Shown here: positions 12,414 to 59,878 of the stretch, one piece after another | Position numbering within the stretch: the first letter of the stretch is position 1 | How the letters are laid out: the number at the start of each line of letters is the position of its first letter | Assembly: GCA_000091205.1 (NCBI GenBank) | Contig: AP006500.2 | DNA: 64,000 bases | DNA from: Cyanidioschyzon merolae | Lineage: Eukaryota | Reading direction: 5' to 3' (one strand) | The notes under the pieces: generated by a model | The model's database searches: none | Told to the model about the DNA's origin: nothing | Seen by the model: the letters and a program-made list of their open reading frames with translations, nothing else | Translations under genes and position numbers: made by a program

Positions 12414-12936
12414 TACTACACGATTCAATTCATTGCATTTAGGACTTGTATAATTACTGATGAGAATCAGGATTTCTCAAACCTATACCCTACACGATTT
12501 CACTGATTGCATTTAATACTTGTGTAATCACTGATGAGAATCAGGATTTCTCAAACCTATACCCTACACGATTTCACTGATTGCATTTAATACTTGTGTA
12601 ATCACTGATGAGAATCAGGATTTCTCAAACCTATACCCTACACGATTTCACTGATTGCATTTAATACTTGTGTAATCACTGATGAGAATCAGGATTTCTC
12701 AAACCTATACCCTACACGATTCCATTCACTGCTTTTAATACTTGTGTAATCACTGATGAGAATCAGGATTTCTCAAACCTATACCCTACACGATTCCATT
12801 CACTGCTTTTAATACTTGTGTAATCACTGATGAGAATCAGGATTTCTCAAACCTATACCCTACACGATTCCATTCACTGCTTTTAATACTTGTGTAATCA
12901 CTGATGAGAATCAGGATTTCTCAAACCTATACCCTC
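12414..12936. repeat. 74-bp minisatellite of about 7 units, intergenic and upstream of the Tim9-like gene.
   Basis: The unit gatttcactgattgcatttaatacttgtgtaatcactgatgagaatcaggatttctcaaacctataccctacac recurs at 12496, 12570, 12644 and onward, with variants. Confidence 0.9.
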
Positions 12937-13518: not shown

Positions 13519-14904
13519 TTGTATGCGCTCAGCAGACTCATGTTTACTGGCTACTATGTCGCGGCAGACTGGAAACGAAAGGCTCAGCGGCAACGACAGT
13601 GTTGGAAGCGACGCTTCACCACAACCTGGCGTCGAGGAGCACTGACTCCGGACTGCCAGCAACGGACAGCTGCAGCGTCTCGATGTGCACAGTCCGCTGC
13701 TATCCGAGCAATTATTTGCATGGTATCGAGAGAGGAACCTGTGCGGGACTTGGTATCGGACGCTTCAGATTCAACAAGAACACGCTCCGCAGGACCCGCT
13801 ATTGGTGCCGCAGAGAAACGCAAAGCGTCGAGGGCGAGCGCCTTGGACCCGTACCAAACCACGAGTGCTAGAAGCGGGTCTGCGAACGCACTCTTGGACG
13901 CGGTACCCTGGTTAGCACTGCACCTGGCGACCGTTCTCTGGGGGACACAGCACGCAGTTATCAAACAGCTCGTAGACGGCGGGTTCGACGCATCTGTGCT
14001 CAATATGGAAAGATTTGGCATTGCAGCTAGCGTCAGCGTAGCAGCGGCGGCAGGTCTGCACATTCTCGATTCGTGGAATACCTCGAGACGGCCCGGCAGG
14101 CGAAAAGCGCAACAGTTTCCGCAAAACTGGCGTTTTTGGCGACGAATACTGGAAACCTGGAGCGGTGCGCTGGAGCTCGGCCTTTGGATGTTCCTTGGCT
14201 ATGCGTGCCAATCCATTGGTCTGACCGACACAAGCGCCTCTAGAAGTAGTTTTCTGCTGTACTTGAATGTGAAGATCGTGCCGTTTCTCGCTGCCGTACT
14301 GCTGCGACGTCGCATTCCGCGAGTCACATGGCTCGCTGCGACGATAGCGCTCTTCGGAACATTAATGCTTTCGTTCGACGGGGCGCCACCCAACGCGGGT
14401 GATGCCTGGAGTGTCGCAGCAGCCGTCGCGTCAGCGATGTTCATCCTGCGTCTGGAGCGTGTAGCAAGTCAAATGCCGCCGGCCACAATGAATGCACTGT
14501 CGTTGACAACGGTAACGATTCTCGCAACGCTATGGAGTGCGTTCCGATTCGATGACTCAGGAAGGCCAGTGTTCGACTGGGCGATGCTCGGTTCGGCTGC
14601 ACAACATATAACGGATCCAGCAATCCTTTACTTGGGACTAGCAGCGACAGCACTGAGCGGCTTGCTCCAAGCCTTTGGACAAGAGCACATCTCTGCCGAG
14701 CGGGCCGCTATCATATATGCATTGGATCCCGTCTATGCAGCAGCATTTGCGTACTTGCTTCTGGGCGAGACGCTCGGTCCGCGAGGTATTCTCGGCGCCG
14801 CCATTGTGTTCATAGCAGCGTTGCTATCGCAGGGAGCGATACGATCATGGCTCTCTGATCGGTTAGAGACTCGAGCAGAGAACGGCAAACTAAACGATTC
14901 ATGA
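13519..14904 (+). CDS. EamA/DMT-superfamily membrane transporter. The N-terminal portion of the ORF may be upstream read-through.
   Basis: Multiple hydrophobic helices. ALHLATVLWGTQHAVIK ... IIYALDPVYAAAFAYLLLGETLGPRGILGAAIVFIAALL is typical of duplicated EamA domains. Confidence 0.55.
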   Translation: MYALSRLMFTGYYVAADWKRKAQRQRQCWKRRFTTTWRRGALTPDCQQRTAAASRCAQSAAIRAIICMVSREEPVRDLVSDASDSTRTRSAGPAIGAAEKRKASRASALDPYQTTSARSGSANALLDAVPWLALHLATVLWGTQHAVIKQLVDGGFDASVLNMERFGIAASVSVAAAAGLHILDSWNTSRRPGRRKAQQFPQNWRFWRRILETWSGALELGLWMFLGYACQSIGLTDTSASRSSFLLYLNVKIVPFLAAVLLRRRIPRVTWLAATIALFGTLMLSFDGAPPNAGDAWSVAAAVASAMFILRLERVASQMPPATMNALSLTTVTILATLWSAFRFDDSGRPVFDWAMLGSAAQHITDPAILYLGLAATALSGLLQAFGQEHISAERAAIIYALDPVYAAAFAYLLLGETLGPRGILGAAIVFIAALLSQGAIRSWLSDRLETRAENGKLNDS

Positions 14905-15150: not shown

Positions 15151-16452
15151 TCAATGATGGCGTGTTGACGTCGATGCTGTCGGCGTTTGCAGGCGAGTTG
15201 CGCCTACCATCTGCATGAGGACGGTCTTGGCACGCCCGTACAACTCGCGCAGTGTCGGAGGCAACCAGGTCGACCACATGTCTAACTGCATTTCGATGTG
15301 TTGCCACACCAGCCGCGTGAAAGGACAGCTTAAATAGCGCAACTGTAAATAGCGATAGAGCACCAAAACCGCCAGGAAGCTTCTTTGCGGTGTGAATATC
15401 GAAGCCAGCAAAAAGATGAACAGGGCTGCTTCGGCGTAGGCAGCCAGTAGGCGAGCCCTACTTTCATGCTGGCGCAAGTATGCGGCCAGATGTCGTTGCT
15501 TTGTCGGTGCCAAAAACCAGCGTAGCACCTGTGCAGAGGCAGTAGCGCTTTCGAAAAGTGGCAACAGACGATCGTAAACGAACGTGGTGATGAGCGACGC
15601 CATTGCGAGCCTTAACGCAACCGGGTGATGCAGCTGCACACCAACGGATACGAAGAAAAGCCGCGGAATGAGATCAGCAGAAGCGAGCGCCCGCTCTAGA
15701 CGCACCCGACCAGGCCACTCGCGAGGTAGCCGTTGCCAGCTCTGGTAGCAAGTCCAAGCCAGGGAAAGGAAAACACCGACCCAGGTCCAGCCGACAAGAG
15801 GCCCCGTTCCCATCCAAAACGTGCCAGTAGCAGCAACTAGGATGCACAGGTCCAACACGGGGCCCAAGTCGCTTGCCCCGCTGCGCTGAAAGCCAGCCCA
15901 GGCCGCTTGTCGGCATGCCTGCACACATTTCCAGGTGCGCTGTCGCCAGTCGTTGCTGTAGGTCCGCGCAAACTGGGTACGCTCACCTGCTGCTGCGTCT
16001 GCTGGAACCGCTCTAGAGCTCTGCGGCTTCAACGGCAACGAAGGATCGATGTACCTGCGAAAGAAAGCCCGACGGAGACGCTCCTCGACTTCCGCTGACG
16101 GTGCGGTGACCTCAGCGGCACGCCGAAAGCGCTGCCAAGCCTCGTCCGTGTCGAAAGGGTAGCGTTTGAAAGCCTCCTCTGCTGCCTCTGCTGCATCTTC
16201 AACCAGTGGCATGGTCCTCTCTTCTGCGGGCGGTGAACGACCTCGGCAACTGCCACACCCCGGAGTCCGGTGTGAGGAACCCCATTCATGTCCGCAATGT
16301 TCCAGTTCATCGAGCGCGCCCGCAGAGCGATCACCGATGCATCGAGTGCAGTGAGAGCGCACCAGGGAGGATACCCTCAGCAAGTTGCGCTGCCATGCGT
16401 GCAAACTGCTGGGAACGGGACACCAGGCAAGGTACTCTGGATCGGTACCCAC
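15151..16452 (-). CDS. Hypothetical multi-pass membrane protein
   Basis: 433-aa ORF with 3-4 strongly hydrophobic helices in the C-terminal half. No motif confidently recognised. Confidence 0.35.
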   Translation of the reverse strand: MGTDPEYLAWCPVPSSLHAWQRNLLRVSSLVRSHCTRCIGDRSAGALDELEHCGHEWGSSHRTPGCGSCRGRSPPAEERTMPLVEDAAEAAEEAFKRYPFDTDEAWQRFRRAAEVTAPSAEVEERLRRAFFRRYIDPSLPLKPQSSRAVPADAAAGERTQFARTYSNDWRQRTWKCVQACRQAAWAGFQRSGASDLGPVLDLCILVAATGTFWMGTGPLVGWTWVGVFLSLAWTCYQSWQRLPREWPGRVRLERALASADLIPRLFFVSVGVQLHHPVALRLAMASLITTFVYDRLLPLFESATASAQVLRWFLAPTKQRHLAAYLRQHESRARLLAAYAEAALFIFLLASIFTPQRSFLAVLVLYRYLQLRYLSCPFTRLVWQHIEMQLDMWSTWLPPTLRELYGRAKTVLMQMVGATRLQTPTASTSTRHH

Positions 16453-16700
16453 TGTACTGGATATACGGATAATGGTCTTGTTCAGCGGGACTCTGGGAGA
16501 TGTACTCTGGATTGGAACGCACTGTACCGGATATACGGATGCTCCTCGTGGTCAGCGGGACTCTAGGGAACGTACCTTGGATGGGTTCGCACTACACTGG
16601 ACGTAAGGATACTGAATTTGGCCAAGATAGGCAATAGGCAACGTGCTCTGGATCGGTACGCACTGTACTGGATGTACAGATAGTGAACAAGATCAACATT
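16433..16700. repeat. 70-bp tandem repeat of about 4 units at the 5' end of and upstream of the 15151-16452(-) ORF.
   Basis: tactctggatcggtac...cagcgggactct recurs at 16433, 16503, 16573 and 16644. Confidence 0.8.
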
Positions 16701-27669: not shown

Positions 27670-28584
27670 ATGGGGATTCGGCGAACGCTGGTTGCCTGCA
27701 CCGGTCGAATACCGCACCCAAACAACGTCCTGGCTGTTGGCGGTAGTGCGTCCTCCGCGCGTCATCCAATAATGTACATTTTGATACCACAATTGCTATT
27801 CTTATCCGTATTTTCAAATCGCCATGACGGTCGCACGCATGCGGAGCGCTGGTGGCGTCATGGCGCTGACCCCGCTCCCTGGGATGCAGTGTCGAACTTG
27901 CTGCTCATGTCGGATGCTACGGCTTTTCGGGAAGAACTGAGTTTTCTGGAGTCTGGGACACGTGTGTTACAGGAGCAGTTCATCGAAATCGAGTCACTTT
28001 GGAGCCAAGTAGGTGCGCTCGAGCGTTGCGTCTGCGACTCCACACTGTATGTTCGAAAGTGGCTTCGTGAACTCGCAGCGCACTGTCCCGTGGCAGATGA
28101 AGCAACGCTGACAGCGCTCTTCGAGCGCGTTAACGAAGCAGCTCGAGTGTCGTCTGGTGGCTCGGGGACTGCCTCCGCCGTTGCCGTAGGTACAACAGTC
28201 CCGAAGGACCCGCGAGACAGCGGGCTGCTAGCAGCACGGAGCGGCCCCGCAGCAAAAGAGTCACTGCGAGAAGCTGGTCAACGCGCTGCATCCTCGGCGC
28301 TCAAAGTGTGCAGCAAGGCGGAGCGTGATCGGAAAGAAGTTCGTAAGCTCTTGTCGAAGCTGGAGAACCAACGCCTTCGAACGGATCCGCAGCTGGAAGC
28401 GGTGCTAATGTTGCTGTGGCGGAACCGGCCTGCCGGGCTCTATGTGCATGATCTCATGCAAGAGACGCGACTCTCGCGAATGCGTTTGAACACGTTTCTG
28501 CACGCCTTGGTGAAGAGTGGCTTGGTACAGAAACAGGCTCGGAAGGGCTTGATCTATTCGCTGTGTCGAGAGCACTGCGGCTGA
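27670..28584 (+). CDS. Hypothetical protein with a possible C-terminal winged-helix-like region
   Basis: 304-aa ORF. C-terminal LYVHDLMQETRLSRMRLNTFLHALVKSGLVQKQARKGLIYSL. Confidence 0.3.
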   Translation: MGIRRTLVACTGRIPHPNNVLAVGGSASSARHPIMYILIPQLLFLSVFSNRHDGRTHAERWWRHGADPAPWDAVSNLLLMSDATAFREELSFLESGTRVLQEQFIEIESLWSQVGALERCVCDSTLYVRKWLRELAAHCPVADEATLTALFERVNEAARVSSGGSGTASAVAVGTTVPKDPRDSGLLAARSGPAAKESLREAGQRAASSALKVCSKAERDRKEVRKLLSKLENQRLRTDPQLEAVLMLLWRNRPAGLYVHDLMQETRLSRMRLNTFLHALVKSGLVQKQARKGLIYSLCREHCG

Positions 28585-28789
28585 TGTGCAGGCATCGCGC
28601 GAGCGCGCACACCAGGTTTCGAAGGTCTCGCGACGTCCAGCTGCAGACTCTAGCCTGGCGAAGTGGTCGATCGCACGGGTAGCAAAGTGTTCCAGCAGGC
28701 AACAAGTGTATTTGTCCAGGAATCGAAATAAGTACCAGCTGTGTCACGATGTCATGAGCATATCCCGCACCTGCAGCATGACAAACAAG

Positions 28790-29295
28790 TATGCCCATAT
28801 CGCTGCGGTCGACGCCCGTGAAAGCCAGTCAGACGGACTCCATCACGTTTACACGCGTATGTGTTGGTGTTCGTGCGCTGAAGAATCATTTCGAAAAGCC
28901 GCCCATGCCGGACGCGCTAAACTGCACCCCTGCGTCAGCATACGCCCACAACGACATGGGATGTCGTGTGCGTCGCCTCGTAGAGGCGGACGTTTACAGC
29001 ACCTAAGCTGGCTCGAGCGATCCTGTCTGCAGGAACGCTGCACTGTGTGCCTCTGTTTGCATCTGTCGCCTGTGGGGCGTTCACGGTACGTGAAGCCCCC
29101 GATGCACGAAGATTCGTGCCTCTATGGAAGCCGCGAATATGCATGAGGCCGTAGCGCCTTGGCGGTGCGTCTGTGTGCTTCTCTCTCTCTCTGTGTGTGT
29201 GTGTGTGTCTGTGTCGTCCAGTACACTGTGGATGCATGAAGAGCTCAGCGTTGCCCGCTATGGCATCCACGGTAGCGTCGTCGACGGCAAGCATG
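28790..29295. repeat. Inverted-repeat left arm, about 506 bp with an internal (CT)5(GT)9. It lies about 360 bp upstream of the NDUFAF7-like start.
   Basis: The reverse complement matches 34280-34792 almost base-for-base. ORF peptides at 28791-29006(+) and 34570-34941(-), and at 29173-29382(+) and 34095-34403(-), are identical over the arm. Confidence 0.9.
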
Positions 29296-29653
29296 CTTTT
29301 CGTCTCGCAATCACGCGTTCGGCCTGCTTCTTGGAAAAAAAGTCGCTTCAAGGAGCACTCGACATTTGCGAAACTGACATAGAATCTTCTGGTTCCTCGA
29401 GATTCTGCTCAAACTTAGGCTCTGCGTTGCTTGCGCTTTGGAAGTTTCGCGCTGCGCGAGAGCACTTCAGCGTCAGGTCTACCGGGCGACGCCTAGTCGA
29501 GAGACGACCAAAGGACTTGCTCGCTCGTTTGCTGCACACTATGAGACTATAAAAGTACCGTGCAGTATAGGCGTATTTGGGAGATTTTATACTAGTGTGT
29601 TCTGAGCGCCCTTGAGACAGTGAAGCGCCTCTGAGCCCACTGCTTCCCCTGCA

Positions 29654-30215
29654 GTGCACTTGAACATGGAAACACCACTACTACGAGCGCTGGTGCGACG
29701 CATCCGCACACTTGGACCGCTGACAGTCTCAGAGTACATGCAGACTTGTGCACTGCACCCGCAATACGGTTACTACCAGACCGGCAAGGACAAGATCGGT
29801 CGAAAAGGTGATTTTGTCACGGCTCCAGAGGTATCTCCGATCTTCGGAGAACTCGTAGCGCTCTGGTTCATGGTCCAGTGGCGCGACTGGCTCCAAAGTC
29901 CTAGACAGATTCGTCTGATAGAGCTCGGACCAGGGACGGGTACACTGATGAAGAATATGTTACAGACAGCGCGACAGTTTCCAGAGTTTTACCGCGCGCT
30001 CCATGTCCAGTTGCTTGAAGCGGGTCGTCCGTTTCAAGCGCGGCAGCAAAGCATGCTCCAGGCTTACGTACAAGAGCGCAAAGTCTCATGGTTGGACGCT
30101 TTAGATCTTGATGGATTTGATGCGTCAGCTGGTAGCGACAGCGGGCCAGTTATGTTTCTCGCGCATGAATTCCTAGACGCACTGCCGGTACACCATTTTG
30201 TGCGCTGCCAGCGTA

Positions 30216-30270
<55 letters not shown>

Positions 30271-30919
30271 AGTCGCATGGTCGGAGCGCTTGGTCGATAT
30301 CGTGGACGGTGGCGAGACGAACAGCCCGCGCCTTCGCTTTGTTCAGAGTCGCGGTATCACGCCGGCTGCGGCGTTGTGGACGAGCCATCCGCTGCTTCGG
30401 CCGATGCTCGAGCACGAACAACTCACGGCAATTGAGGTACCGACGGGTGCCATGGCCGTTATCGAACGAATATGTCGGATCATGAGTCAACGTGGCGGTG
30501 TCGCGCTAGTCGTGGATTACGCCAAAGCGGCGGAACCGCCGTTGGCATGCACTTTGCGAGCGGTGCGGCAGCATCGGTTCGAGGACCCTCTGGTTGCGCC
30601 CGGCGAGGCGGATATCACCGTTGATGTGGACTTTGACTTGCTTGCAAAGGTAGCGCAGGCGACTGCTCCAGCTTTGCAGGTGCATGTACTGAGCCAGCGT
30701 GAGTTTCTCTTGCGTATGGGCTTGCAAGTTCGTCTACAGGTGGTTGCCCGCAAACATCAGGATGCAGCGTCCCGTTTATTTGCTGCTTGTCAGCGGCTGA
30801 TCGCACCGGAAGCAATGGGCCACGTCTATCAAGTGATGGGTATTGCATCTTCAATACCGAATGGCAATCGGGCGCCATACGATGTGCTGTTTCCGTTCCA
30901 CGCGCGGCCTAGCACCTAA
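29654..30919 (+). CDS. NDUFAF7: NDUFAF7/MidA-family (DUF185) methyltransferase with an internal polyglutamine insertion.
   Basis: GDFVTAPEVSPIFGELVALWFMVQW ... IELGPGTGTLMKNM ... LAHEFLDALPVH are MidA/NDUFAF7 hallmarks. (CAG)17 at 30218-30268 encodes Q17. Confidence 0.7.
30218..30268. repeat. (CAG)17 microsatellite inside the NDUFAF7-like CDS, encoding polyQ.
   Basis: read directly. Confidence 0.95.
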
Positions 30920-32266
30920 GTCGAAAGAGAGTGTGCCTCTACGCACACGCGCAGCGTTTTCCTTTGGTTGCACGCTCGGTCCAGGGCCATTGCAGTGCAC
31001 CGGAATTGCGAGTGCCTTTGGAATGACCCTCTGGTGCAATGTGTGTACGCGTTGCGGAAGATTCATTGTGAACGCGCTGCATGATGCGCGCGAGGCGCCG
31101 ACCCAGACCTTGTGGCTATGCGCTCCGAAACCCCCAGCACGAAACGGCGTCGTCGTAGGGTCACTTGGGCGCGAGGCGCGGCTGCGTCAGTCTATTAGCG
31201 CACTGAACTGCATGACAAGAACGGACGCCTAGACAGCAGTCGTCGAGCTGGGGCTCTCTGTACAGTTTTTCAGTTCTCGTGGTGTGACATTCATAAAGAA
31301 GCGATTTTTACAAGTCTGTGACATAAAGGGTGGTGCTCCAGCGCGTCTGCTCGATGAAGGATTGCCCCGAACCGTGGGCCTAGGCACGTCACCACCAAAA
31401 GAACGCGTTACGTACGCCATAAGCATATGCCGCAGCATGCTCATCGCGCAGCTCTCCATCGACAGATCAAGCTGGTTATCGTGAAAGCCATCCAGGTCCG
31501 CGCTTGCCCCGCCGGACTATATAAAGAAGAACGGAGACTATGGAATCATCCGTAGATGTCTATCCAGGCATGTATGTATATTTGCGTACCTGTATCGGTG
31601 CGTGGATACGTGTGTATAGCCACACAAGCATTCGTGGTTGTACTCGTGCTCAGGTGCGTGCATGCCGTCATGCAAAAGCGCCAATGTACATGTGCGTGCC
31701 TCCGTGCCTTCGTCTACACACACCCATGAGCATCCTTGCAAGTATTCATGCGTTCATCTACGCATGCCAATGTATATCATGACGTGCATTCGAGCACGTT
31801 GCTTCTTGGCGCTCGCACGCAACCGCGATGCAAACGTCGCTACCGTAAACCGACTATGGAGCTGGTTTTTTGGACCCTTTCGCAAAAAGCAAACAGTTAC
31901 AGAGTCTGTCGGGTTCAGATACGATTCGCTCCGACGCTTCCTAATGATTTACGTGTCCTTTGATGACAATAAAGGCGACCAGAAGTGCTTGCTCTTACAG
32001 CATCGAGCGCGCAAGTCGGAGCAGCGGAAGCACGCCCTCTGAGGCAGCATCTACGGACACTAGGCGCGTATCCGGGAGCCTCTGGCTCCATTCATCGACC
32101 AGTGACCAGAAAAGAAACCCCCTTGCGATCTTTGGAACACCAAGAGTTCCACGCCTGACGCCCGAAACCGTTGGTGCGTTGCTTAAAGAGAATTTCTTCT
32201 GCTTTTGGCGAGCTGTCCAAACGCCAAAACGCAGCCATTCGAACATAGGAAACACTAGAGCATCCG

Positions 32267-34138
32267 TCAATTCCAGCCGCGAAGCCACCGGCGTTTCTGC
32301 TGTTCCTCGATGGTCAGGTAGAGGCCGTAGATCCATGGTGAGAAGTAGATAAACGCCGCAGCGGCAAGCAACACACCAATCGTTACAAGTTGATAGTGCC
32401 CCGTTCTCGCAAGGGGTGCGCGATCCACAAGCAAAGCAGTAAGCAGTATACCGTACAGGAGACCTGGCAAATAATGGTACAGGAATGCAGCTCTTTTGAC
32501 ACCGATGTAGGGAAGAAGATTCAGGAGCCATCCGGTAAACAAATATGTGCCTAGAGCGTACAGCTTCTGCTGTGAGCGGCGTTGCTTCTTCGGGAGCTCC
32601 GCAGTCTGCAGTCGCCGCGGCGCTCGATCCCCGAAGCCACCGAGTCCAGCGATGAAATTTTGGGCGAGAAGAAATCCGAAAAAGAGCAACGAGCAGAGGA
32701 CACTCCAGGCAATTACAGGATTCAGAATTAGGTAAACCCGAGCCTCGATAACGGGGTATTGGCTCCGAGGGGTAACCCCAGTCCCGTGCTGATTTGCTTC
32801 GGCAGGTGCGCTTCGAGTCGTCTTCGGATTCTCCGCCCATGGCGCTCGTTTGGTCTGAATCCAGTACAGAATTCCTCGTAGGTTCAGTGGCCAGGACCAC
32901 CACTTGCTTTCCCAGTGGTGCCGTCCAGGCACTTGTGCGTTCGCGCGCAACATCTCCTTATTCAGATAAACGAATTTGCGAAAGAATGGAACCGGCGCGG
33001 CTGCAGCATTGTACTCGGGTGAGCCGATGAGTTTCGCTCGAAAATCAGGTAGCATGAAGGCATCCCCGGAGCCACTCCGCGGAAGCAATCGGAAGTGTAT
33101 CCAAAAAAATGATGTGTATAACGCTAGCGCAAGCAGTCCGACGAAAACACATTGCCACAGGGGAATCCGTTTCTGCGACCGCAGCAGGGCTCGGCTCCCA
33201 AAGACGGACACCACACCGGCTAGCGCAGGCGTCGCTAGCGCCGTCCACTTGATGGACAAGGCCAGGCCAGCGGAGATGCCACTCCAGTAGAGCCATCTCC
33301 ATCGGGCTCGAGTGCCATCGCGAGTCCGCCACAGGCGAAGCACACAGTAGAAATGTAAAAGCAAGAAGAATAGTAACTGTGAGTCTGTTAATATGTGACG
33401 CGACTCGATTGTCGTTGCAACTTCCAAGAGTACCCAGGCAGCGGCAAGCACACTAGCCGCTACGTGCAACGAGAGCTCCCGAGCAACCAGGTACATCAGC
33501 GGTACCAAAAGCGTGCCGAAGACTGCCGCTACAGTGCGCGCACCCACGTATGACTTATCGGGATATTCTGCTCCAATTTGATCGTAGCTGAAACTCGCAT
33601 TGTATCCATGAAGATACGCACCTAGGGCGAGTAGGAGCTTCCCGAGTGGCGGGTGGATATCGAAGAAGTACTCGCCCGTGAAGTATGCTTCCACAAACTT
33701 GCCAAAGTGAAACTCATCGAATACAACTGCCTTTGGCTCCGACAATCGCCAAAAGCGTGTCAACGCTGCAAAGATGGTTAGCAACACCAGTACGACCCCA
33801 TCGAGAAGAGCGGCGTACGGCTCGGCGTTCGAGCGCAGTGAGCTGTCGCCTTCCACTAGGGAGGCGCCTCTGCTTCCTGACGCCGTCTCTGTCGTTCGAT
33901 TCAAAGGCGGTCTCATGGCTATGTGTTTTCCTCGAGCTTTCGAGAGGTCCGGAGTTCCCTGTGCTCCGGAGCGACTGTTTTTCGGGAGTTGCTGGGCGCT
34001 CTCGTGGCGGTGCATCTGCAGTACTTGCCCAGAGGTCAGCACACGCCGAGTCTGTGAACACGCTGTGGATCGTGCAGCACGCGTGAAAGAGTGATCAAAT
34101 CCGGCCCAAAGCAGCAGTGGTGAGCGCTGCGAAGCCAC
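32267..34138 (-). CDS. PMT-family (dolichyl-phosphate-mannose protein O-mannosyltransferase-like) multi-pass membrane protein, apparently without MIR domains.
   Basis: VVFDEFHFGKFVEAYFTGEYFFDIHPPLGKLLLALG is the PMT N-terminal loop-1 signature, including the DE motif. The C-terminal HHWESKWWSWPLNLRGILYW resembles the PMT 4TMC region. There are many TM helices. Confidence 0.6.
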   Translation of the reverse strand: MASQRSPLLLWAGFDHSFTRAARSTACSQTRRVLTSGQVLQMHRHESAQQLPKNSRSGAQGTPDLSKARGKHIAMRPPLNRTTETASGSRGASLVEGDSSLRSNAEPYAALLDGVVLVLLTIFAALTRFWRLSEPKAVVFDEFHFGKFVEAYFTGEYFFDIHPPLGKLLLALGAYLHGYNASFSYDQIGAEYPDKSYVGARTVAAVFGTLLVPLMYLVARELSLHVAASVLAAAWVLLEVATTIESRHILTDSQLLFFLLLHFYCVLRLWRTRDGTRARWRWLYWSGISAGLALSIKWTALATPALAGVVSVFGSRALLRSQKRIPLWQCVFVGLLALALYTSFFWIHFRLLPRSGSGDAFMLPDFRAKLIGSPEYNAAAAPVPFFRKFVYLNKEMLRANAQVPGRHHWESKWWSWPLNLRGILYWIQTKRAPWAENPKTTRSAPAEANQHGTGVTPRSQYPVIEARVYLILNPVIAWSVLCSLLFFGFLLAQNFIAGLGGFGDRAPRRLQTAELPKKQRRSQQKLYALGTYLFTGWLLNLLPYIGVKRAAFLYHYLPGLLYGILLTALLVDRAPLARTGHYQLVTIGVLLAAAAFIYFSPWIYGLYLTIEEQQKRRWLRGWN

Positions 34139-34279
34139 GCGACACCCACAAGGGAGCGGCGCTATAGAAAGTTGCGTTTACGGACGTTCGCGCCTTTACA
34201 AATTCGCGGGCAGTACGCAGGCACGAGTCGTGGCGGGAGCGTTTTGCGGCCTGCCTCGAAGGGCGTTTCCCTAACGACT

Positions 34280-34792
34280 GCATGCTTGCCGTCGACGACG
34301 CTACCGTGGATGCCATAGCGGGCAACGCTGAGCTCTTCATGCATCCACAGTGTACTGGACGACATAGACACACACACACACACACAGAGAGAGAGAAGCA
34401 CACAGACGCACCGCCAAGGCGCTACGGCCTCATGCATATTCGCGGCTTCCATAGAGGCACGAATGTTCGTGCATCGGGGGCTTCACGTACCGTGAACGCC
34501 CCACAGGCGACAGATGCAAACAGAGGCACACAGTGCAGCGTTCCTGCAGACAGGATCGCTCGAGCCAGCTTAGGTGCTGTAAACGTCCGCCTCTACGAGG
34601 CGACGCACACGACATCCCATGTCGTTGTGGGCGTATGCTGACGCAGGGGTGCAGTTTAGCGCGTCCGGCATGGGCGGCTTTTCGAAATGATTCTTCAGCG
34701 CACGAACACCAACACATACGCGTGTAAACGTGATGGAGTCCGTCTGACTGGCTTTCACGGGCGTCGACCGCAGCGATATGGGCATACCTGCT
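34280..34792. repeat. Inverted-repeat right arm, about 513 bp with an internal (CA)n(GA)n. It lies about 140 bp upstream of the PMT-like start.
   Basis: Reverse complement of 28790-29295. Confidence 0.9.

Positions 34793-35052: not shown

Positions 35053-35083
<31 letters not shown>
35053..35083. repeat. (GCT)10 microsatellite
   Basis: read directly. Confidence 0.9.
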
Positions 35084-35233: not shown

Positions 35234-36043
35234 ATGACGAACGCGTTCTCGGAGGAGTTGGCACTGGAAGCTGCTGGCCTAGACGCAATCTTCGGAAAAG
35301 ACTTCAAGGCTGAGGAGACCACGACAGGACACGTTCGTTGGAGTGTACCCCTCTCACACAACGGCGTGGAACTGGAGCTGGCGTTTCTTTTAGACAGTGC
35401 ATATCCACTTGACAGCGAACCTCAAGTGCGCGTGACTTGTAAGGAAGGCCTTTCACTGCGTGCAGTACGGGAGCTCGAAGGGCACCTTCAAAAGGTAGCC
35501 GCGGAGAATCGTGGTTCTCCCAGCGCTTATCTGCTGTACACAGCTGCGCAAGACTGGATCGATACGCACGATCGACGAGAGGCTGCCGAAGCTATCAGCG
35601 CTACGATTGCGTCCACGAGGCTTTCTGCTCGCGAGCCGGACTCGGCGGGCACCGGAACTACTTTCGAGACCAAAGCCGAGAGCTTTACCCAACTCGTCGA
35701 GCACGAGACGCTCGAACATGCCACCATAGACCGAACGCTGGGCACGCCGGTCACACCGGAGACTTTTGCCGCTTGGAAACAGGAATTCGACAAGTATCTA
35801 CTGGAAAACGGTATCCTCGATATCGCAAATAACGCAGATATCGAATTAGACGCCTCCCAAGGCGGCTGGAAAGGCAATTCGCGGCGGAAACCTACTGGTC
35901 GTGAGCTCTTCACCATGCACAGGGAAATGTTCGTCGATGATTTCGAGGAAAGTGATCAATGCGAAAGCACGGCGTCTGGAGCATGCGACACTCAAGGCAG
36001 TGAACTAGCAGAGCATGTGGACGCCTCACTGTTTCTCTCGTGA
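35234..36043 (+). CDS. RWD-domain protein (RWDD1/Gir2-like, DRG-family regulatory protein type)
   Basis: N-terminal EELALEAAGLDAIFGKDF...ELELAFLLDSAYPLDSEPQVRV fits the RWD fold. C-terminal PVTPETFAAWKQEFDKYLLE and an acidic tail resemble the DFRP region. Confidence 0.55.
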   Translation: MTNAFSEELALEAAGLDAIFGKDFKAEETTTGHVRWSVPLSHNGVELELAFLLDSAYPLDSEPQVRVTCKEGLSLRAVRELEGHLQKVAAENRGSPSAYLLYTAAQDWIDTHDRREAAEAISATIASTRLSAREPDSAGTGTTFETKAESFTQLVEHETLEHATIDRTLGTPVTPETFAAWKQEFDKYLLENGILDIANNADIELDASQGGWKGNSRRKPTGRELFTMHREMFVDDFEESDQCESTASGACDTQGSELAEHVDASLFLS

Positions 36044-40475: not shown

Positions 40476-41327
40476 CCAACGCGAAAGAAGCATAGGATAA
40501 CACATATCCATAGCCGGTACACAATTGAAGTGATATGCTGGAAAACGCGAAAAAGCATAGGATAACACATATCCATAGCCGGTACACAATTGAAGTGATA
40601 TGCTGGAAAACGCGAAAAAGCATAGGATAATACATATCCATAGCCGGAACACAATTGAAGTGATACACTGGAAAACGCGAAAAAGCATAGGATAACACAG
40701 ACTCGTAGCCGGAACACAATTGAAGTGATACACTGGAAAACGCGAAAAAGCATAGGATAACGCATATCCATAGCCGGAACACAATTGAAGTGATATGCTG
40801 GAAAACGCGAAAAAGCAGATGATAACACACACTCATAGCCGGTACACAATTGAAGTGATATGCTGGAAAACGCGAAAAGCATAGGATAACACACACTCAT
40901 AGCCGGTACACAATTGAAGTGATATGCTGGAAAACGCGAAAAAGCATAGGATAACACACACTCATAGCCGGTACACAATTGAAGTGATATGCTGGAAAAC
41001 GCGAAAAAGCAGATGATAACACACACTCATAGCCGGTACACAATTGAAGTGATATGCTGGAAAACGCGAAAAAGCATAGGATAACACACACTCATAGCCG
41101 GTACACAATTGAAGTGATATGCTGGAAAACGCGAAAAAGCATAGGATAATACATATCCATAGCCGGAACACAATTGAAGTGATACACTGGAAAACGCGAA
41201 AAAGCATAGGATAACACACACTCATAGCCGGTACACAATTGAAGTGATACACTGGAAAACGCGAAAAAGCATAGGATAATACATATCCATAGCCGGAACA
41301 CAATTGAAGTGATACACTGGAAAACGC
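40476..41327. repeat. 65-bp minisatellite of about 13 units, ending about 190 bp upstream of the RPB1 start codon.
   Basis: The unit ggaaaacgcgaaaaagcataggataacacatatccatagccggtacacaattgaagtgatatgct repeats. Minus-strand ORFs start every 65 or 130 bp (41026, 41091, 41221). Confidence 0.9.
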
Positions 41328-41519
41328 GCGCCACCGCCGTCGACGCCGGCGCGCTTCCGCTGGAGCACTGCGCGTCCGCCGGCTCCTGCACCCGGTGCCG
41401 TGCCCGGGTGTGGACTTGTCGTTTGGGGAGTTGTTGCACGGCGGGTGGGTCGCCACTCCAGCTACGGTTGCGTTTGAACTGTGCTACTTTCTATCTTCAG
41501 ACTGGGCACGTTCATCGCG

Positions 41520-44500
41520 ATGGACTATGACCTGCAGACTTTCTCCTCAGCAGAGCTGAAGGCCGTAGGTGCTGTTCAGTTCGGGCTCCTGTCCCCGGAC
41601 GAACTGCGGCGCCTCTCGGTGGTGCGGGTTGAGTACGACGTAGCGTTCGAGCGTGGCGTGCCCAAGGCCGGGGGGGTGCTGGATCCTCGGCTGGGGGCAA
41701 TCGACCGGAACTTTCCATGTGCAACTTGCGAGGGGTCGTCGATCGACTGTCCGGGGCACTTTGGTCACATCGAGCTGGTCAAACCGGTGTTCAACGTGTT
41801 GATGCTGTCCACCGTGCTGAAAACGCTTCGTTGCGTGTGTTACTATTGTTCCCGTTTGCTTGTTGATGGTTCAGACTCGCGCATGCTGCGGGCAGCGAGG
41901 ATTAAGGATCCCGTCAAGCGTTTTCAGGCGGTTTTTCAACTCTGTAACGGAACAAGGGTTTGTGGCGGAGGCGCCGACAGCTCGGAGGAACAGCTGATGC
42001 TGCCTGCCGCCGTTCTCGAGGCTAGGGAGCGTATTGGCAAGCCTCGGGAAGGGTGCGGGAACCTTCAACCACATGTAACACGTGACGGCCTGCGAATTCT
42101 CGCGGAGTTTCCTGACGCGGAGGCCTTTGCAGCCGAGCGCAAGCAGGAGCTTGCCGCAGAGCGCGTCCAACAGATATTCCGACACATTCGTGACGAAGAC
42201 CTAGAGCTCCTCGGCTTTCATCCGCGGTTTTCCCGACCAGAATGGATGGTTCTGAGCGTGCTACCGGTGCCGCCACCACACGTGCGACCCTCGATCCAGA
42301 TGGATGCAGTGTCACGAGGGGAGGACGATCTGACGTTCAAACTGGGCGACATCATCAAGGCGAACAATGCCCTGCAGCGACTGGAGGCGGAAGGAGCGCC
42401 CGCCCATGTTATTCGGGAGCAGTACGTGCTTCTGCAATTCCACGTTGCCACATTTATGAACAACGATTTGCCGGGCATGCCTCGAGCGACACTGAGAAGT
42501 GGACGTCCGCTCAAGTCCATCGCCCAACGACTCAAAGGCAAAGAGGGTCGTGTCCGCAACAATCTCATGGGCAAAAGGGTGAACTTTTCGGCACGAACGG
42601 TGATCACTGCAGATCCGCAGCTGGCGCTTGATGAAGTCGGTGTCCCGCGCTCCGTGGCTATGACCCTCACCTACCCCGAAGTAGTAACGCCGTATAATAT
42701 CGACCGCTTATGGGAAGCGGTGCGAAACGGACCCAACGCCTATCCGGGTGCATTGTTTGTGATTCGAAACGATGGCAAGCGGATTGCGTTGCAGTTTGTG
42801 CGCCGATCGGCGGATATCGTGCTCGAACCGGGCTGCGTCGTGGAACGACACCTTCTGAACGGAGACCTAGTGCTCTTCAATCGTCAACCGTCTTTGCATC
42901 GCATGTCGATCATGGGACACCGGGTGCGCATCCTACCGTACTCAACGTTCCGCATGAACCTCAGCGCAACCAGTCCCTACAATGCGGATTTTGACGGTGA
43001 CGAAATGAACCTTCATGTCCCGCAGTCGGAGGAGGTTCGAGCGGAAATCAAGGAACTCATGGCAGTCCCCAAGAATATTGTATCTCCGCAGGCAAATCGC
43101 CCAGTGATGGGCATCGTGCAGGATTCACTGCTGGGCTGCATGCTCTTTACATTGCGAGATACGTTTTTGGAGGAAGACACGGTCTTTAATCTTCTGTTGC
43201 ACTTGCCGCACTTTGACGGACGCATTCCGGCACCAGCAATTCTGAAGCCGCGGCCACTCTGGACGGGAAAGCAGATCTTTTCGCTGCTTTTACCAGACGG
43301 CGTGAATCTAGAGCGCCTCTCCAACGGACATCCCGATCATGAGCGTACAATCATGACGCCCAGTGATACTCGCGTGCTCATCCAGAACGGAGAGCTCATC
43401 ACCGGCATCGTAGACAAACGCACGGTAGGATCCAGCGCGGGGTCGCTGATTCACGTCACCTGGAAGGAGTCAGGTCCAGAGAGAACGAGTCAACTGATCT
43501 CCGATATTCAACTCTTAATCAATTATTGGCTTATGCAGAACGGTATGAGCATTGGCATTGGAGACTGTATTGCTGATGCACACACCATGGCCGCTATTAA
43601 CCGAACGATTCAAGAAGCGAAGGACGAGGTGCGGCAGCTTATCCGTCTGGCACAAGAGGGTCGCCTCGAGCGTCAGCCCGGCAAAACGATGCTGGAGTCG
43701 TTCGAGGCCTGCGTGAATCGCGTACTGAACAGTGCCCGCGACAAGGCCGGTGGCTTTGCACAGGAGAGTCTCCTTCCAAGCAACAACATCAAGCGGATGG
43801 TGTCCGCCGGCAGCAAAGGCTCCTTCATTAATGTTTCCCAGATTGTGGCATGTGTTGGCCAGCAGAACGTCGAGGGCAAGCGCATCCCGTACGGCTTTCG
43901 TCGCCGAACACTTCCCCATTTCGTGGTGGACGATTTGTCACCCGAGGCCCGAGGATTCGTGGAGAACTCGTACCTCCGGGGACTGACTCCCGAGGAGGTC
44001 TTCTTTCATGCCATGGGCGGTCGAGAGGGTCTCATCGACACCGCAGTGAAGACTGCTGAAACCGGCTACATCCAGAGACGCCTCATGAAGGCCATGGAAG
44101 ACATTCGGATTGAATATGACGGTACTGTACGCAACTCGCTGGGCGATGTGATGCAGTTCCTCTACGGAGATGATGCCGCAGACGGGGCCATGCTGGAGGT
44201 GCAGGAGCTGCGCCTTGTGCGCGCAAGTAACCAGGAAATGGAAGCGCTCTTTCGTTTAGACGTATACGACCGAGATTTCGGCCTCGGCTACATAGAACCT
44301 GACCTAATCGACGCGGTGCGAACGGATCCTGAAGTGGCGCTCGAGCTCGAAGAAGAGTACCAACAGCTCTTGGCGGATCGCGAGCAACTCTGCGCGGTCT
44401 TTCCCACGGGTGAGGCCAAGTGGCCGCTTATGGTGAATGTTCAGCGGTTGATCCAGAACTGTCGCTCTATTTTCGGTATTCAACACGATACACTGAGCGA

Positions 44501-46979
44501 CTTGCATCCCCGGCAAATCATTCAAGGCGTGCGCGTACTGCTCCAGCGCTGCGTCGTTGTTCCTGGCGACGATGAGCTCTCCCGCGAGGCCCAGCGGAAC
44601 GCAGTACTGCTCTTTGCGGCCCACGTGCGGGCAGAGCTCGCCACGAAGCGTGTCCTGCAGATTCACCGGCTGAACAGCAAAGCTTTTGCCTGGCTTCTCG
44701 GCGAGATTGAGACGCGCTTTGTGCGAGCACGAGCAACACCTGGTGAAATGGTTGGCGCGGTTGCTGCCCAGTCGCTGGGTGAGCCTGCCACCCAGATGAC
44801 CCTGAACACATTTCATTTTGCGGGTGTGTCGGCAAAGAACGTCACCCTGGGAGTCCCGCGTCTCAAAGAGCTGATCAACGTAGCTCGTCAAGCGAAAACT
44901 CCATCTGTTACGGTGTATCTGAAGAGCGGCAAAGATAAGGAGCTGGCGAATATTGTGCAGAGTGAGCTAGAGCAGTGCCGACTCCGCGACGTGGTCGAAA
45001 GCAGCGCCATCTACTTTGATCCGGATCCCGCGAACACCGTTGTGGAAGCGGATCGGGAATGGGTCCGCGACTACTTCGACTTGCCCGATGAGATGGACCG
45101 GCCCGAGCGCTTATCGCCTTGGCTTTTGCGCATCGTCCTGAGCACCGAGATGATGATTGACAAACGCCTGCGATTGAGCGATGTTGCTCGTCGTCTGCGG
45201 GCGGAGTTTGGTGGCGACCTCTCCGTTGTCTATTCGGATGACAATGCCGAGCAACTGGTGATGCACATTCGCATGGCCGGAGACGAGTACGAGAAAGGCG
45301 CGCTGGGCGTTCCGATTCTCGGCGAGTCGGAGCGCCTTGACGATACACTGAACCTACTGGGGCCTGGCGACATGACCGCGGGCGGGAACCAGTCGCTAGA
45401 GGCACTGGACTCGGGCACCGTTGAGGAGCAAGATGATGTTTTTCTGAAGCGTATTGAACTAGCGCTCCTAGAGGATATGCAGCTGAAAGGGATTCCAGGT
45501 ATTCGAAAGGTGTTCCTGCGTCAGACGCAACGTGTTCTCTTTGATCCCGAGGCAGGATCTTTTCGCAGTGCGCCTGAGTGGGTGCTAGATACCGAAGGGA
45601 CGGCGCTATTGGCGGTGCTTTCCCATCCGGATGTGGATGCGAGGCGCACGATTTCCAACGAGATTACCGAAGTGCTACAAGTGCTCGGGATTGAGGCTGC
45701 TCGGCAAGCGCTTTACAATGAGATGTACGCGGTGCTGAGTTTTGATGGATCCAGTGTTGGATACCGGCACTTGGCGTTGCTGGTCGAGGTGATGACCTGT
45801 CGCGGAATGCTCATACCTGTATCTCGATTCGGAATTAATCGACTCGAGACGGGACCATTGATGCGCTGCACTTTTGAAGAGACCGTCGAGATTCTCGCAA
45901 CCGCGGCGACCTTTGGCGTTCGTGATGCTTGTGAGGGTGTCTCGCAAGCGGTGATTCTGGGGCAACGAGCAAAAGTAGGCACCGGGGCCTTTTCACTAAC
46001 GCTCGACGAGTCTGTACTGAATCAGGCAGAAACGGAAACGAGCGTTGCTGCAGTGCGGGACGCCCACGTCGGCGGTGTCTTTGCGAAAGCCTATGCTGCA
46101 GCCGACGTGGATGCAGATCACTGGACACCAGCGTACACGCCAGGAGCAACGCCTGGGATGGCCAGCGACGGCTTCGCAGCGCCCTGGACTCCGAGTTTGA
46201 ACCTCGCGAGTCCGTACGGTTCATTTTCCCCAGCCGTTGGCTTTAGCCCAGCAACGAGCACATATGTCGGTGGTGATGCGATGAAGGATGCCGGTCGGTA
46301 TGGGCTCGGTGGAACCTCACCCTTTGCGAGCTTCTCCGCTAGTGCGACGACTCCGAATTGGGCTCCGAGTCCCGCGGGGGGCGGGACCGGTACGTTGGGC
46401 GCATTTTCGCCATCGAGTCCCGCCTATTCGCCAACGAGTCCTCGTTTGGTGTCGCCGACGAGCCCTGCATACTCACCAACAAGTCCTGCGTATTCGCCGA
46501 CGAGCCCTGCATACTCACCAACAAGTCCTGCGTATTCGCCGACGAGCCCTGCATACTCACCAACAAGTCCTGCGTATTCGCCGACGAGCCCTGCGTATTC
46601 GCCTTCATCACCGAATGTTGCATATTCGCCTTCATCACCGAATGTTGCCTATTCACCTTCTTCACCGAATGTTGCCTATTCACCTTCTTCACCGAATGTT
46701 GCATATTCACCTTCTTCACCGAATGTTGCATATTCGCCCTCATCACCGAATGTTGCATATTCGCCCTCATCACCGAACGTTGCGTACTCGCCTTCTTCAC
46801 CGAATGTTGCATACTCGCCCTCATCACCGAATGTAGCGTATTCACCTTCTTCACCGGTTGCATATTCACCCTCTTCACCGAACGTTGCCTACTCACCCTC
46901 ATCACCGAATGTGGCATACTCGCCTTCGTCACCGGCGTTTTCACCATCGTCACCTGTATATTCTCCAAAAAACAAATAG
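41520..46979 (+). CDS. RPB1: DNA-directed RNA polymerase II largest subunit RPB1, with a C-terminal heptad/nonamer repeat domain. The start is taken at the Met of [10 protein letters not shown]. The track ORF opens 13 codons upstream.
   Basis: Zinc-binding [27 protein letters not shown]. The catalytic [14 protein letters not shown]. The bridge helix, trigger loop and C-terminal YSPTSPA repeats. It is a single 1.8k-aa ORF. Confidence 0.95.
   Translation: [1819 protein letters not shown]
46440..46930 (+). repeat. Coding tandem repeats of the RPB1 CTD. A 42-bp unit, equal to two heptads with alternating codon usage, occurs about 4 times. A 27-bp unit encoding YSPSSPNVA occurs about 11 times.
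   Basis: tactcaccaacaagtcctgcgtattcgccgacgagccctgca repeats. tattcgccttcatcaccgaatgttgca repeats. Confidence 0.9.
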
Positions 46980-53088: not shown

Positions 53089-53245
53089 GCGACCGACTTG
53101 TCGAAGAACGGTGCCCCGGATGCGAACGACTCCACTACTGATCCGTCTATGGAAAAAACGCGTTTCCCGTGGAAAAGCGACCGACTTGTCGAAGAACGGT
53201 GCCCCGGATGCGAACGACTCCGCTGTTGATCCGTCTATGGAAAAA
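53089..53245. repeat. Tandem duplication of about 78 bp, 2 units
   Basis: gcgaccgacttgtcgaagaacggtgccccggatgcgaacgactcc.ct..tgatccgtctatggaaaaa.cg.tttc occurs twice in succession. Confidence 0.85.
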
Positions 53246-54524
53246 GGCGTTTCACATGGAAACGAAAGCCTTCAACTGGATTGAACCATAGCGACCAGGC
53301 TGGCACGAAGCACCACTGCTCGCCCGATCTCGGCTGCGTACTCCATGACCGCGTTGGAGTCACGGAGAACGAAGATGTGGAAGAGCTGGGTAGAAGAATG
53401 TGGGTACCAGAACCCACGATGATTACCTCAACGAAGCCTGGGCTGTTGAACGATCCTGTCCGATTCGCAGTTTTTCGGCACCTGCAAGAAACAATTGTCG
53501 CTAAGGCGGATGCTGCCAGAATGCGCACTCGTCTCGTCTTTACGAACAGCAGCTTATCTCTCTTTGAATCACCATGTACAGGTCTACCACTTCACACGAT
53601 TAAAGTCGCATCACGGAAGACGAACACCCGTTTCTCCTGTAACAAGCGTTCGCGCTTCCGTGTCCAATCGACAGTATGGTGGTCACCGAGCAACGGTCTC
53701 CCATACAAGCGCGCTTTTTATTTTTTTTATCCGTCTCTCTTCATCGCTGTCGGTATCAACGGTACGGAAGCTTCGCATCCTATTGCTTCTTCAGAAATAT
53801 TTGGTAGAGAACGTATGGAATGGATTTAATTGACGAGGAAACACTTGTGCAGAAATTGTTCGACGAATTCTGGTTTACAGACACGATATGCAGCTTACGG
53901 AGAACGATGACAATGGTTCATCCACCTGCTGACCGTAGAAGGAAGGTATTGTGGACATCAACAGGTTTCTAGCAAGTTACCACCAAAAGCACCGATTATC
54001 TCCGCGTCCTCTATCTGCATGCTACATCATACATTCCTTTTGTTGACTACCTGCAATACATCGAAGTGAAACCAAATTCACACACTGATGCACGAGTTCC
54101 AGAGTGCGCTGCTCTGAGCATGACGCCCACCATGCCGTGGCAAACATAATTCTAGGACAAGACACACCGCAGGCATCCTCGAAGCTCGCGAGGCTCAACC
54201 GGGTTCCCCGCTCGCAGGCAAAAACGAACCGCAGATGCGCCCCCTGCGCTCAGGAGGTGTGGCGCCCGCTCATCGTTCCTTGTTGCACGCTACCGTATCT
54301 GGCTCGTCAGCGCAAACTTGTCGGTAAAATATCCTGAACTTTCGCCAGAATGCTGCAGAGATGCTTCAGGCAATGAACAGGTCGGAGGATCCACCAGACA
54401 CGACGTCATCGTGACGACGGGCAGCGTGCCTGTGTGGGTTCTGCAGCGCAGGCGCACCAGCGACCAACATTGTTTTCAATTCTGCAAGTGTGTTTACAAG
54501 CGAGGAATCAAAGCATTTGGATGG

Positions 54525-59780: not shown

Positions 59781-59815
59781 GACGCAGCATGATGGACGCT
59801 TTCCCGAAAGCCAGT

Positions 59816-59878
59816 ATCCATCCATCCATCCATCCATCCATCCATCCATCCATCCATCCATCCATCCATCCATCCATC
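59816..59878. repeat. (ATCC)n, equivalently (CATC)n, tetranucleotide microsatellite of about 15 units
   Basis: read directly. Confidence 0.95.

Follow-up and report, generated by a model that had tools for sequence, protein, structure and literature searches.

A two-copy inverted repeat around two convergent genes of Cyanidioschyzon merolae, apparently kept alike by gene conversion

In the nuclear genome of Cyanidioschyzon merolae, a 'minimal' photosynthetic model eukaryote that has very little redundant DNA and recombines homologous sequences efficiently, we analysed a stretch of 64,000 nucleotides (contig AP006500.2; hereafter the window) in which two convergent genes are bracketed by an inverted repeat (Table 1). 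The identities that an earlier note had assigned to these genes, NDUFAF7-like and PMT-like, were upheld by Pfam matches, and for the former homologues were also found. The NDUFAF7-like gene contains a CAG-encoded polyQ tract (30218-30269), and is followed by a poly(A) site near 31313, after which the transcript contig L034 carries a non-templated A18 tail. A MIR domain was absent from the PMT-like protein in the Pfam search. Conservation of its ORF with the outgroup PMT starts only at residue 111, the N-terminus not being conserved, so the start codon is uncertain; the first in-frame ATGs lie at 34015 and 33916, at 265 and 364 nt from arm 2, respectively. The upstream neighbour, geneA, has orthologues at the same position in both outgroups (alignment score 512 to positions 8649-9305 of the outgroup contig L002). 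On the other side, the RWD protein was identical on 23 environmental contigs among those read.

Table 1. Features of the repeat-flanked locus, with positions counted in the 64-kb window
Feature	Position	Strand	Remarks
geneA	27670..28584	+	neighbour upstream of arm 1; weak winged-helix matches below threshold
Arm 1	28786..29296	+	non-coding; between the geneA stop codon (28584) and the NDUFAF7 ATG (29666)
Compound (TC)n(TG)n microsatellite	29180..29215	+	inside arm 1; arm 2 counterpart at 34362-34396
Unique spacer	29297..34279	.	4983 nt with two convergent genes; would be inverted by an inter-arm crossover
NDUFAF7-like (MidA / Methyltransf_28) gene	29666..30919	+	PF02636, E 4e-53
Protein O-mannosyltransferase-like (PMT-like) gene	32267..34015	-	PF02366 (PMT, E 3e-52), PF16192 (PMT_4TMC, E 3e-43); start at ATG 34015 or 33916
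Arm 2	34280..34790	-	in the divergent spacer between PMT (-) and the RWD/DFRP gene (+, ATG 35234)
RWD / DRG-family-regulatory-protein gene	35234..36043	+	outer neighbour of arm 2; PF05773, PF16543

A repeat search and local alignment showed that the two arms are reverse complements of 511 nt each. When arm 1 was aligned with the reverse complement of arm 2, we found four mismatches (28788, 29111, 29191 and 29211) and no indels, corresponding to 99.2% identity, which bears out the inverted repeat of about 99% identity described earlier; the coordinates given then (28790-29295 and 34280-34792) were correct to within a few bases. The mismatch at 28788, the third base of the arm, is the only one that tells the two sides apart consistently among the strains, and the strict repeat therefore probably begins at 28789 and spans about 508 bp (28789-29296 in arm 1). 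The arms had been said to differ mainly in the length of their microsatellite. We found instead that they are equal in net length, with one TC unit changed to a TG unit (29191, C/G). No part of the arms varies more among strains than the microsatellite, which shows indels of 2, 8, 14 and 20 nt. It holds that the two genes are convergent and that each has an arm upstream in the same orientation. Of the two arm-to-gene distances proposed, that of about 360 bp for NDUFAF7 stands (370 nt to the ATG), while that of about 140 bp for PMT does not, as it refers to a GTG at 34138. The contexts of the arms differ, as arm 1 lies downstream of the same-strand geneA and arm 2 inside the divergent PMT/RWD spacer.

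The same repeat is present in about 30 independent hot-spring contigs that are 98-99.5% identical to the window, and its boundaries are identical in all strains. All four arm/flank junctions were seen repeatedly, in contigs that came from over 20 independent samples and from several assemblers; both arm 2 junctions, for instance, were found in L008, L009, L013, L014, L017 and L021-L026. In addition, several contigs (L005, L011-L014, L017 and L019) end at or within the arms, as a true repeat would cause. Contig L005 covers exactly 29295-34282, which means that this assembly stops at both arm boundaries. The recurrence of the junctions in independent contigs refutes an origin of the repeat by misassembly of the source genome, a reading to which we give practically no weight.

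We compared the locus with two outgroups, contig L002 and contig L042 of Cyanidiococcus yangmingshanensis. Both have the order geneA(+), NDUFAF7(+), PMT(-), RWD(+), and neither has an inverted repeat at the locus. Moreover, nhmmer and sensitive blastn found no homologue of the arm in the intergenic regions of the outgroups. Since gene order and orientation are the same and the repeat is missing, the duplication is lineage-specific: it postdates the split from Cyanidiococcus and predates the divergence of the sampled hot-spring strains. Without the arm, the geneA-NDUFAF7 spacer measures 570 nt, compared to 572 nt in Cyanidiococcus; arm 1 may therefore be the derived copy, although this hint is no more than a coincidence of length.

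Sequence variation among the strains points to exchange between the arms. We found 14 polymorphisms that are common to both arms and a single fixed difference, which is at the boundary base 28788 and not inside the repeat; the contigs are short-read metagenome and metatranscriptome assemblies of mixed strains, in which a variant farther than roughly one k-mer (100-140 nt) from the nearest unique flank could be misassigned to the other arm and so inflate the apparent sharing. Several of the shared polymorphic sites lie 45-93 nt from the unique flanks. Mean divergence was 1.48% for pairs of arms from the same side and likewise 1.48% for pairs from opposite sides. Furthermore, the arms fall into three haplotype classes (H1, H2 and H3), each of which occurs on either side; L009 and L034, for example, join H2 to the NDUFAF7 flank, and L010-L012, L015 and L028 join it to the PMT flank. 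The shared polymorphisms, the lack of inner fixed differences and the equal divergence together suggest ongoing gene conversion between the arms. The earlier note had proposed ongoing gene conversion or recent duplication as the cause of the high identity. The former fits these data, whereas recent duplication taken alone does not, because the repeat is present in every sampled strain.

Repeats of this size commonly have a transposon origin, and L002 contains its own dispersed repeat of 150-170 nt with one copy just upstream of NDUFAF7. The arms might be what remains of a MITE, a solo LTR or another transposon, or they might have bounded a composite transposon with both genes as its cargo. However, self-BLAST found only two copies of the arm in the window, and all seven metagenome contigs that matched a 35-mer of the arm came from this locus (7/7), in a scan for exact matches that diverged copies would escape. 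This indicates a two-copy repeat and not the abundant dispersed one for which the earlier note had suggested a check. No flanking direct repeat of at least 5 nt, as expected of a target-site duplication, was found at any arm or cassette boundary with an offset of 3 nt allowed, and no terminal inverted repeats were found within the arm, whose termini agree at 7 of 30 positions. None of the four arm-overlapping ORFs that were scanned had a Pfam match to a transposase or integrase. Two housekeeping genes occupy the spacer, and their ancestral order is unchanged with respect to the outgroups that lack the repeat. A mobile element was rejected on these grounds and is very improbable.

A role of the arms as a selected regulatory module, that is, a leader or upstream activating sequence by which NDUFAF7 and PMT would be controlled in common and which would stay identical because both copies must function, is somewhat less remote but still unlikely. 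An arm lies upstream of each gene in the same orientation, the distances from arm to ATG would be nearly equal (370 and 364 nt) if PMT starts at 33916, and the repeat boundaries do not vary among strains. Moreover, arm 1 is transcribed, since it is found in full, upstream of NDUFAF7, in the polyadenylated transcript contig L034 (28621-31313); this contig may merge two transcripts, however, so that arm 1 may be the 3′ UTR of geneA or read-through. Nucleotide diversity of the arms (π = 1.5%) is that of ordinary unique intergenic DNA (0.8-1.9%) and much higher than in coding DNA (0.2-0.4%), and thus no sign of constraint relative to neutral DNA was found, a substitution rate that is nevertheless compatible with short functional motifs inside the arms. 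The arms also tolerate frameshifting indels and variable microsatellites, the same two genes are expressed in outgroups without the repeat, and NDUFAF7 and PMT are functionally unrelated. We also considered whether contig ends 60-100 nt past the arms mark transcription starts. Contigs L001, L035 and L041 begin within 29353-29359, and L001 and L036 stop within 34173-34183. These ends coincide with clusters of strain SNPs (29354/29355/29358/29365 and 34174/34182) and are therefore breaks of the assembly graph induced by SNPs; their reading as transcription starts was rejected.

The arms could also support an active flip-flop, in which recurrent inter-arm crossovers invert the 5-kb cassette and both orientations coexist in wild populations. 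Among the arm-spanning junctions, 18 have the reference orientation and only two (L015 and L029) the alternative one. L015 (identical to L020; JGI 3300009503) is a DNA contig of 11.8 kb that reads as an inverted isomer, with the order RWD flank, arm, NDUFAF7 ... PMT, arm. One of its ends lies in a 65-bp minisatellite, as in other DNA contigs. The switch of flanks falls inside the 511-nt arm (L015 positions 5996-6506), and the contig is exactly what an L010-type chromosome would become through a single crossover within the outer 380 nt. This agrees with the exchange between arms described above. On the other hand, the assembly of L015 lacks the outermost ~220 nt of the arm on the PMT side, so the two arms are not comparable there. 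If these ~220 nt were identical between the arms, the stretch would be longer than both k-mer and read, and an identical contig would result from a misjoin; a near-identical repeat of 0.5 kb is a typical misjoin site for short-read assemblers. In L029 the junction is the reciprocal one, with the geneA flank followed by the arm and PMT, but this contig carries the geneA flank at both ends (28607 each) with two different alleles, and hence cannot be a single molecule. A chimeric path through the repeat fits L029 better and it was not counted as evidence of inversion; it probably derives from a transcript assembly, where the geneA-side flank alone is covered. An inversion isomer is thus plausible from the one DNA contig L015, which in contig data looks the same as a misassembly, while a flip-flop that is active in the population, with L015 as a real isomer, is possible but doubtful. 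A site-specific invertible switch finds no counterpart here, as no recombinase was found among the neighbours geneA, NDUFAF7, PMT and RWD, and the arms are 511 nt long rather than short sites.

Taken together, the locus is probably explained by a duplication specific to this lineage. In the nuclear genome of a C. merolae-like red alga, about 508 bp of upstream, non-coding sequence would have been copied in inverted orientation, so that one copy came to lie between geneA and NDUFAF7 and the other between the divergent PMT and RWD genes. The pair would not be a mobile element; it would be kept alike by gene conversion and tolerated as a by-product. Variants would be moved across by homologous recombination between the arms, and the near-identity would not be due to youth; as variants keep passing between the arms, both would share one allele pool. 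The arms appear to evolve at the ordinary intergenic rate, and for this reason the structure looks like a tolerated by-product of rearrangement and not like a selected regulatory module, as far as sequence diversity can tell. If the arms crossed over, the NDUFAF7-PMT cassette of 5 kb would be inverted. Such a flip should be nearly neutral, because the 0.5 kb in front of each gene would stay the same.

Two inverted copies, undifferentiated arms and a duplication older than the compared genomes were found, as in low-copy palindrome-like inverted repeats under concerted evolution. The locus is a small repeat of this known kind and involves neither a new mechanism nor a new class of genetic element. 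In the sex-chromosome palindromes (PMC8327919), an inverted repeat likewise surrounds a unique spacer, and gene conversion homogenises the arms so that the paralogous copies do not diverge. Those palindromes, however, measure tens of kb to Mb and carry genes in their arms, whereas here the arms are non-coding, the genes are in the spacer, and no evidence of selection keeping the structure was found. Human inversions mediated by inverted repeats through non-allelic homologous recombination, such as Xq28 FLNA-EMD (PMC3961182; bioRxiv 10.1101/2020.04.20.051185), also have similar inverted copies around a short unique segment with two unrelated genes. In FLNA-EMD the arms exchange sequence, and crossover inverts the segment while the genes stay intact. 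Its arms are at least 11 kb long, compared to 0.5 kb here, and the present case concerns a haploid unicellular red alga in which the flipped orientation is suggested by one DNA contig only. Short inverted duplications of once single-copy sequence around a few genes are also left by staggered breaks at inversion breakpoints (Ranz et al. 2007, PMC1885836), a model that offers an origin free of transposons. It predicts, however, that the segment is inverted with respect to the ancestor. The orientation in the window is that of both L002 and Cyanidiococcus L042, and an origin by staggered breaks would thus need an extra re-inversion. The plastid large inverted repeat is similar in that recombination keeps its inverted copies identical and its single-copy region occurs in two orientations, but it is organellar, kb-scale and gene-bearing with equimolar isomers, unlike the nuclear, non-coding 0.5-kb arms described here. 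In bacterial invertible promoter switches (fimS, Hin and similar), inverted repeats likewise flank a DNA segment, and here too orientation could change the neighbours of the genes. These switches use short repeats (9-30 bp) and a dedicated site-specific recombinase, and move a promoter relative to a gene. At the present locus there is no recombinase, and both genes retain identical upstream DNA either way round.

A two-copy repeat whose arms share polymorphisms in wild populations offers a small natural gauge of how ectopic recombination proceeds, and perhaps also of inversion. If the flip-flop were true, the locus would offer a direct, PCR-assayable readout of natural rates of ectopic homologous recombination in an alga long treated as clonal. 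The repeat also breaks or misleads short-read assemblies at the locus, giving rise to chimeric contigs such as L029. We did not find this repeat described in the literature searched.

We also looked for a hidden gene within the arms. No tRNA was found in them, Rfam gave no match at gathering score or at E<1, and the ORFs of the arms had no Pfam match, so that a hidden gene was rejected; the microsatellite indels noted above disrupt the ORFs that span this tract. Exact-protein searches with the NDUFAF7, PMT and geneA proteins of the window and with a 186-aa junction ORF gave no match, nor did the prokaryotic genome contigs that were scanned. When the predicted RNA folding of arm 1 was compared to that of shuffled sequence, the plus strand gave z = -1.0 and the minus strand z = -2.97, the latter being a weak signal of somewhat better folding.

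A repeat search of the window and gapped local alignment bore out the inverted repeat proposed in the earlier note, as well as its placement. Arm 1, on the geneA/NDUFAF7 side, and arm 2, on the PMT/RWD side, are separated by 4983 nt and differ by four mismatches (28788, 29111, 29191 and 29211) without any indel. The net length of the internal microsatellite is therefore equal in both arms, contrary to the earlier claim, and one TC unit is swapped for one TG unit. The identity of 99.2% over 511 nt cannot be due to chance. In self-BLAST of the 64-kb window we found no third arm copy, only microsatellite matches. An exact 35-mer from an invariant arm stretch matched seven metagenome contigs, all seven representing this locus. 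The arm thus exists in two copies and does not belong to an abundant dispersed family, an alternative that the earlier note had raised. No target-site duplications were found at the repeat, and within the arms neither terminal inverted repeats nor tRNA, Rfam or Pfam signals were found. Against shuffled controls, arm 1 shows better folding for its minus strand (z = -2.97, 0/100 shuffles as good) but not for its plus strand (z = -1.0), and a 90-nt SNP-free stretch (28919-29008) contains two short hairpins side by side.

Repeats and genes in the window
Feature	Position	Strand	Description	Basis
Arm 1	28786-29296		511 nt	Repeat search, gapped local alignment
Arm 2	34280-34790		511 nt, inverted	Repeat search, gapped local alignment
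geneA	27670-28584	+	Function unassigned	
NDUFAF7	29666-30919	+	NDUFAF7/Methyltransf_28	Pfam
PMT-like	32267-34015	-	PMT + PMT_4TMC, without MIR; start uncertain	Pfam
RWD/DFRP	35234-36043	+		Pfam
Intergenic minisatellites	1770-2144, 7234-7811, 12416-12935, 16416-16682, 40478-41328, 53088-53262		Units 65-88 bp, 72-98% identity	
Direct repeat, ~2 kb	2265-4219 and 57859-59827 (also 864-1067 and 57611-57813)		73% identity, 55 kb apart	

The arms lie upstream of both convergent genes as described earlier, the geometry behind the putative shared promoter of the earlier note, and Pfam agrees with the NDUFAF7-like and PMT-like gene calls. The distance from arm to ATG is 370 nt for NDUFAF7, close to the claimed 360 nt, but 265 or 364 nt rather than 140 nt for PMT. 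The PMT start is uncertain: ATG codons are present at 34015 and at 33916, and resemblance to the outgroup protein sets in no earlier than ORF residue 111. About 30 residues separate the PMT domain from PMT_4TMC, so the protein lacks the MIR domain that protein O-mannosyltransferases of fungi and animals typically carry; by Pfam, both outgroups encode a PMT with the same domain architecture. The closest named NDUFAF7 homologue is that of Cyanidiococcus yangmingshanensis (62% identity), and 26 near-identical proteins (98%) from hot-spring metagenomes form a cluster. A perfect (CAG)17 tract inside NDUFAF7 (30218-30269) encodes a polyQ run, whose length differs between environmental strains (proteins of 406-411 aa vs 417 aa in the window). 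Its reverse complement, a (CTG)n tract 5' of the RWD gene (35053-35083), gave rise to spurious inverted-repeat pairs (I2-I9) in the repeat search.

About 40 environmental contigs, 98-99.5% identical to the window, were fetched, and all four arm/flank junctions recurred among them. As a true repeat predicts, several end at or within the arms: L005 covers exactly 29295-34282, and L011 and L012 terminate symmetrically, 256 nt into each arm. The contigs would fit the alga resident at Lemonade Creek, Yellowstone, which one study describes as 'C. merolae 10D-like' (PMC11662350). The window is accordingly assigned to the nuclear genome of C. merolae or of a very close relative. Although drawn from a 'metagenome' collection, contig L034 starts at 28621, includes all of arm 1 and ends in a non-templated A18 tail after 31313. 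Arm 1 is thus transcribed, and the contig may join geneA read-through, or the geneA 3' UTR, to the mRNA of NDUFAF7. The collection therefore includes metatranscriptome assemblies, which affects the reading of contig ends and of arm-spanning contigs. Recurrent ends just past the arms could be mistaken for transcription starts, but they fall on clusters of SNPs and represent breaks in the assemblies.

The arm alignment comprised 38 copies, complete or partial and each anchored to unique flank, together with the two arms of the window. Fourteen polymorphisms within the repeat are common to both sides; the geneA/NDUFAF7 side has a further 17 of its own and the RWD/PMT side two. The sole fixed difference is the boundary base 28788. 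A linked block near the inner end of the arm (haplotype H2: 29166G, a 20-nt insertion, 29213A, 29233G and 29251C), with sites 45-130 nt away from unique sequence, continues into the NDUFAF7 flank in two contigs (L009, L034) and into the PMT flank in five (L010-L012, L015, L028). Mean divergence between arms of different contigs is 1.48% both for same-side and for opposite-side pairs, so the arms behave as two draws from a single allele pool, the signature of frequent gene conversion. The shared polymorphisms and side-independent divergence agree with the ongoing conversion suggested earlier, with the arm variants coming from short-read assemblies of mixed strains, so that some may be placed on the wrong arm. 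Arm nucleotide diversity (1.5%) is level with that of unique intergenic DNA (0.8-1.9%) and 4-8 times that of coding DNA, giving no sign of purifying selection on the whole arm. In L036, about ten singleton substitutions absent from other copies fall within 60 nt of arm 1 (equivalent to 29001-29061); they could be assembly or sequencing errors, or conversion from an unsampled donor.

Inversion of the NDUFAF7-PMT segment between such arms is plausible. Reference junctions were crossed by 16 contigs (geneA-arm-NDUFAF7) and two contigs (RWD-arm-PMT), and each flipped junction by one. Retrieval through NDUFAF7 look-ups favours the geneA-side excess, and transcript assemblies, if many of the contigs are such, would help explain it. 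The flipped RWD-arm-NDUFAF7 contig (L015 = L020, sample 3300009503) looks like DNA, since at its other end it stops within the 65-bp minisatellite array, a frequent end point of environmental DNA contigs. It is exactly what a single crossover in a chromosome of the L010 type would yield; the same structure would result from a misjoin across the portion of the arms not open to comparison. The flipped geneA-arm-PMT contig (L029) carries the geneA flank at either end, in two different alleles, which rules it out as a single molecule bearing the reciprocal junction; a chimeric path explains it best.

As outgroups we compared L002 (60% NDUFAF7 identity) and L042 (Cyanidiococcus). Both share the gene order of the window, geneA(+), NDUFAF7(+), PMT(-), RWD(+), Rpp20/Alba(-) and RPB1(+), and in neither did we find the inverted repeat or a detectable arm homologue. 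The duplication is therefore confined to the C. merolae-like lineage, and the window orientation is ancestral. Since the segment keeps the outgroup orientation, a simple staggered-break inversion origin (PMC1885836) is disfavoured. The repeat works in the same way as inverted-repeat inversion substrates (PMC3961182) and resembles small palindromes homogenised by arm-to-arm conversion (PMC8327919). Wherever testable, it has the defining features of this inverted-repeat/palindrome class, and lacks those of a transposon, a site-specific switch or a staggered-break inversion. It is a further example of an already known kind of structure. In a minimal algal genome it provides a natural marker for ectopic recombination, and it is a cautionary case for metagenome assembly.

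L002 has its own dispersed repeat of 150-170 nt in three copies (1766-1914, 9514-9683 and 16056-16225; 94% and 74-76% identity), one directly 5' of NDUFAF7, which shows no homology to the window's arm. Arrays analogous to the window's minisatellites, with 75-81-bp units, are also present in L002, one inside its PMT-RWD spacer (13931-14167). The ~2-kb direct repeat of the window harbours no ORF longer than about 160 aa; it may represent an ancient segmental duplication or an element that has decayed. The 3' part of the RPB1 ORF (41481-46979) contains tandem repeats with 21/27/42-nt periodicity (46406-46934), which presumably encode its heptad-repeat C-terminal domain.
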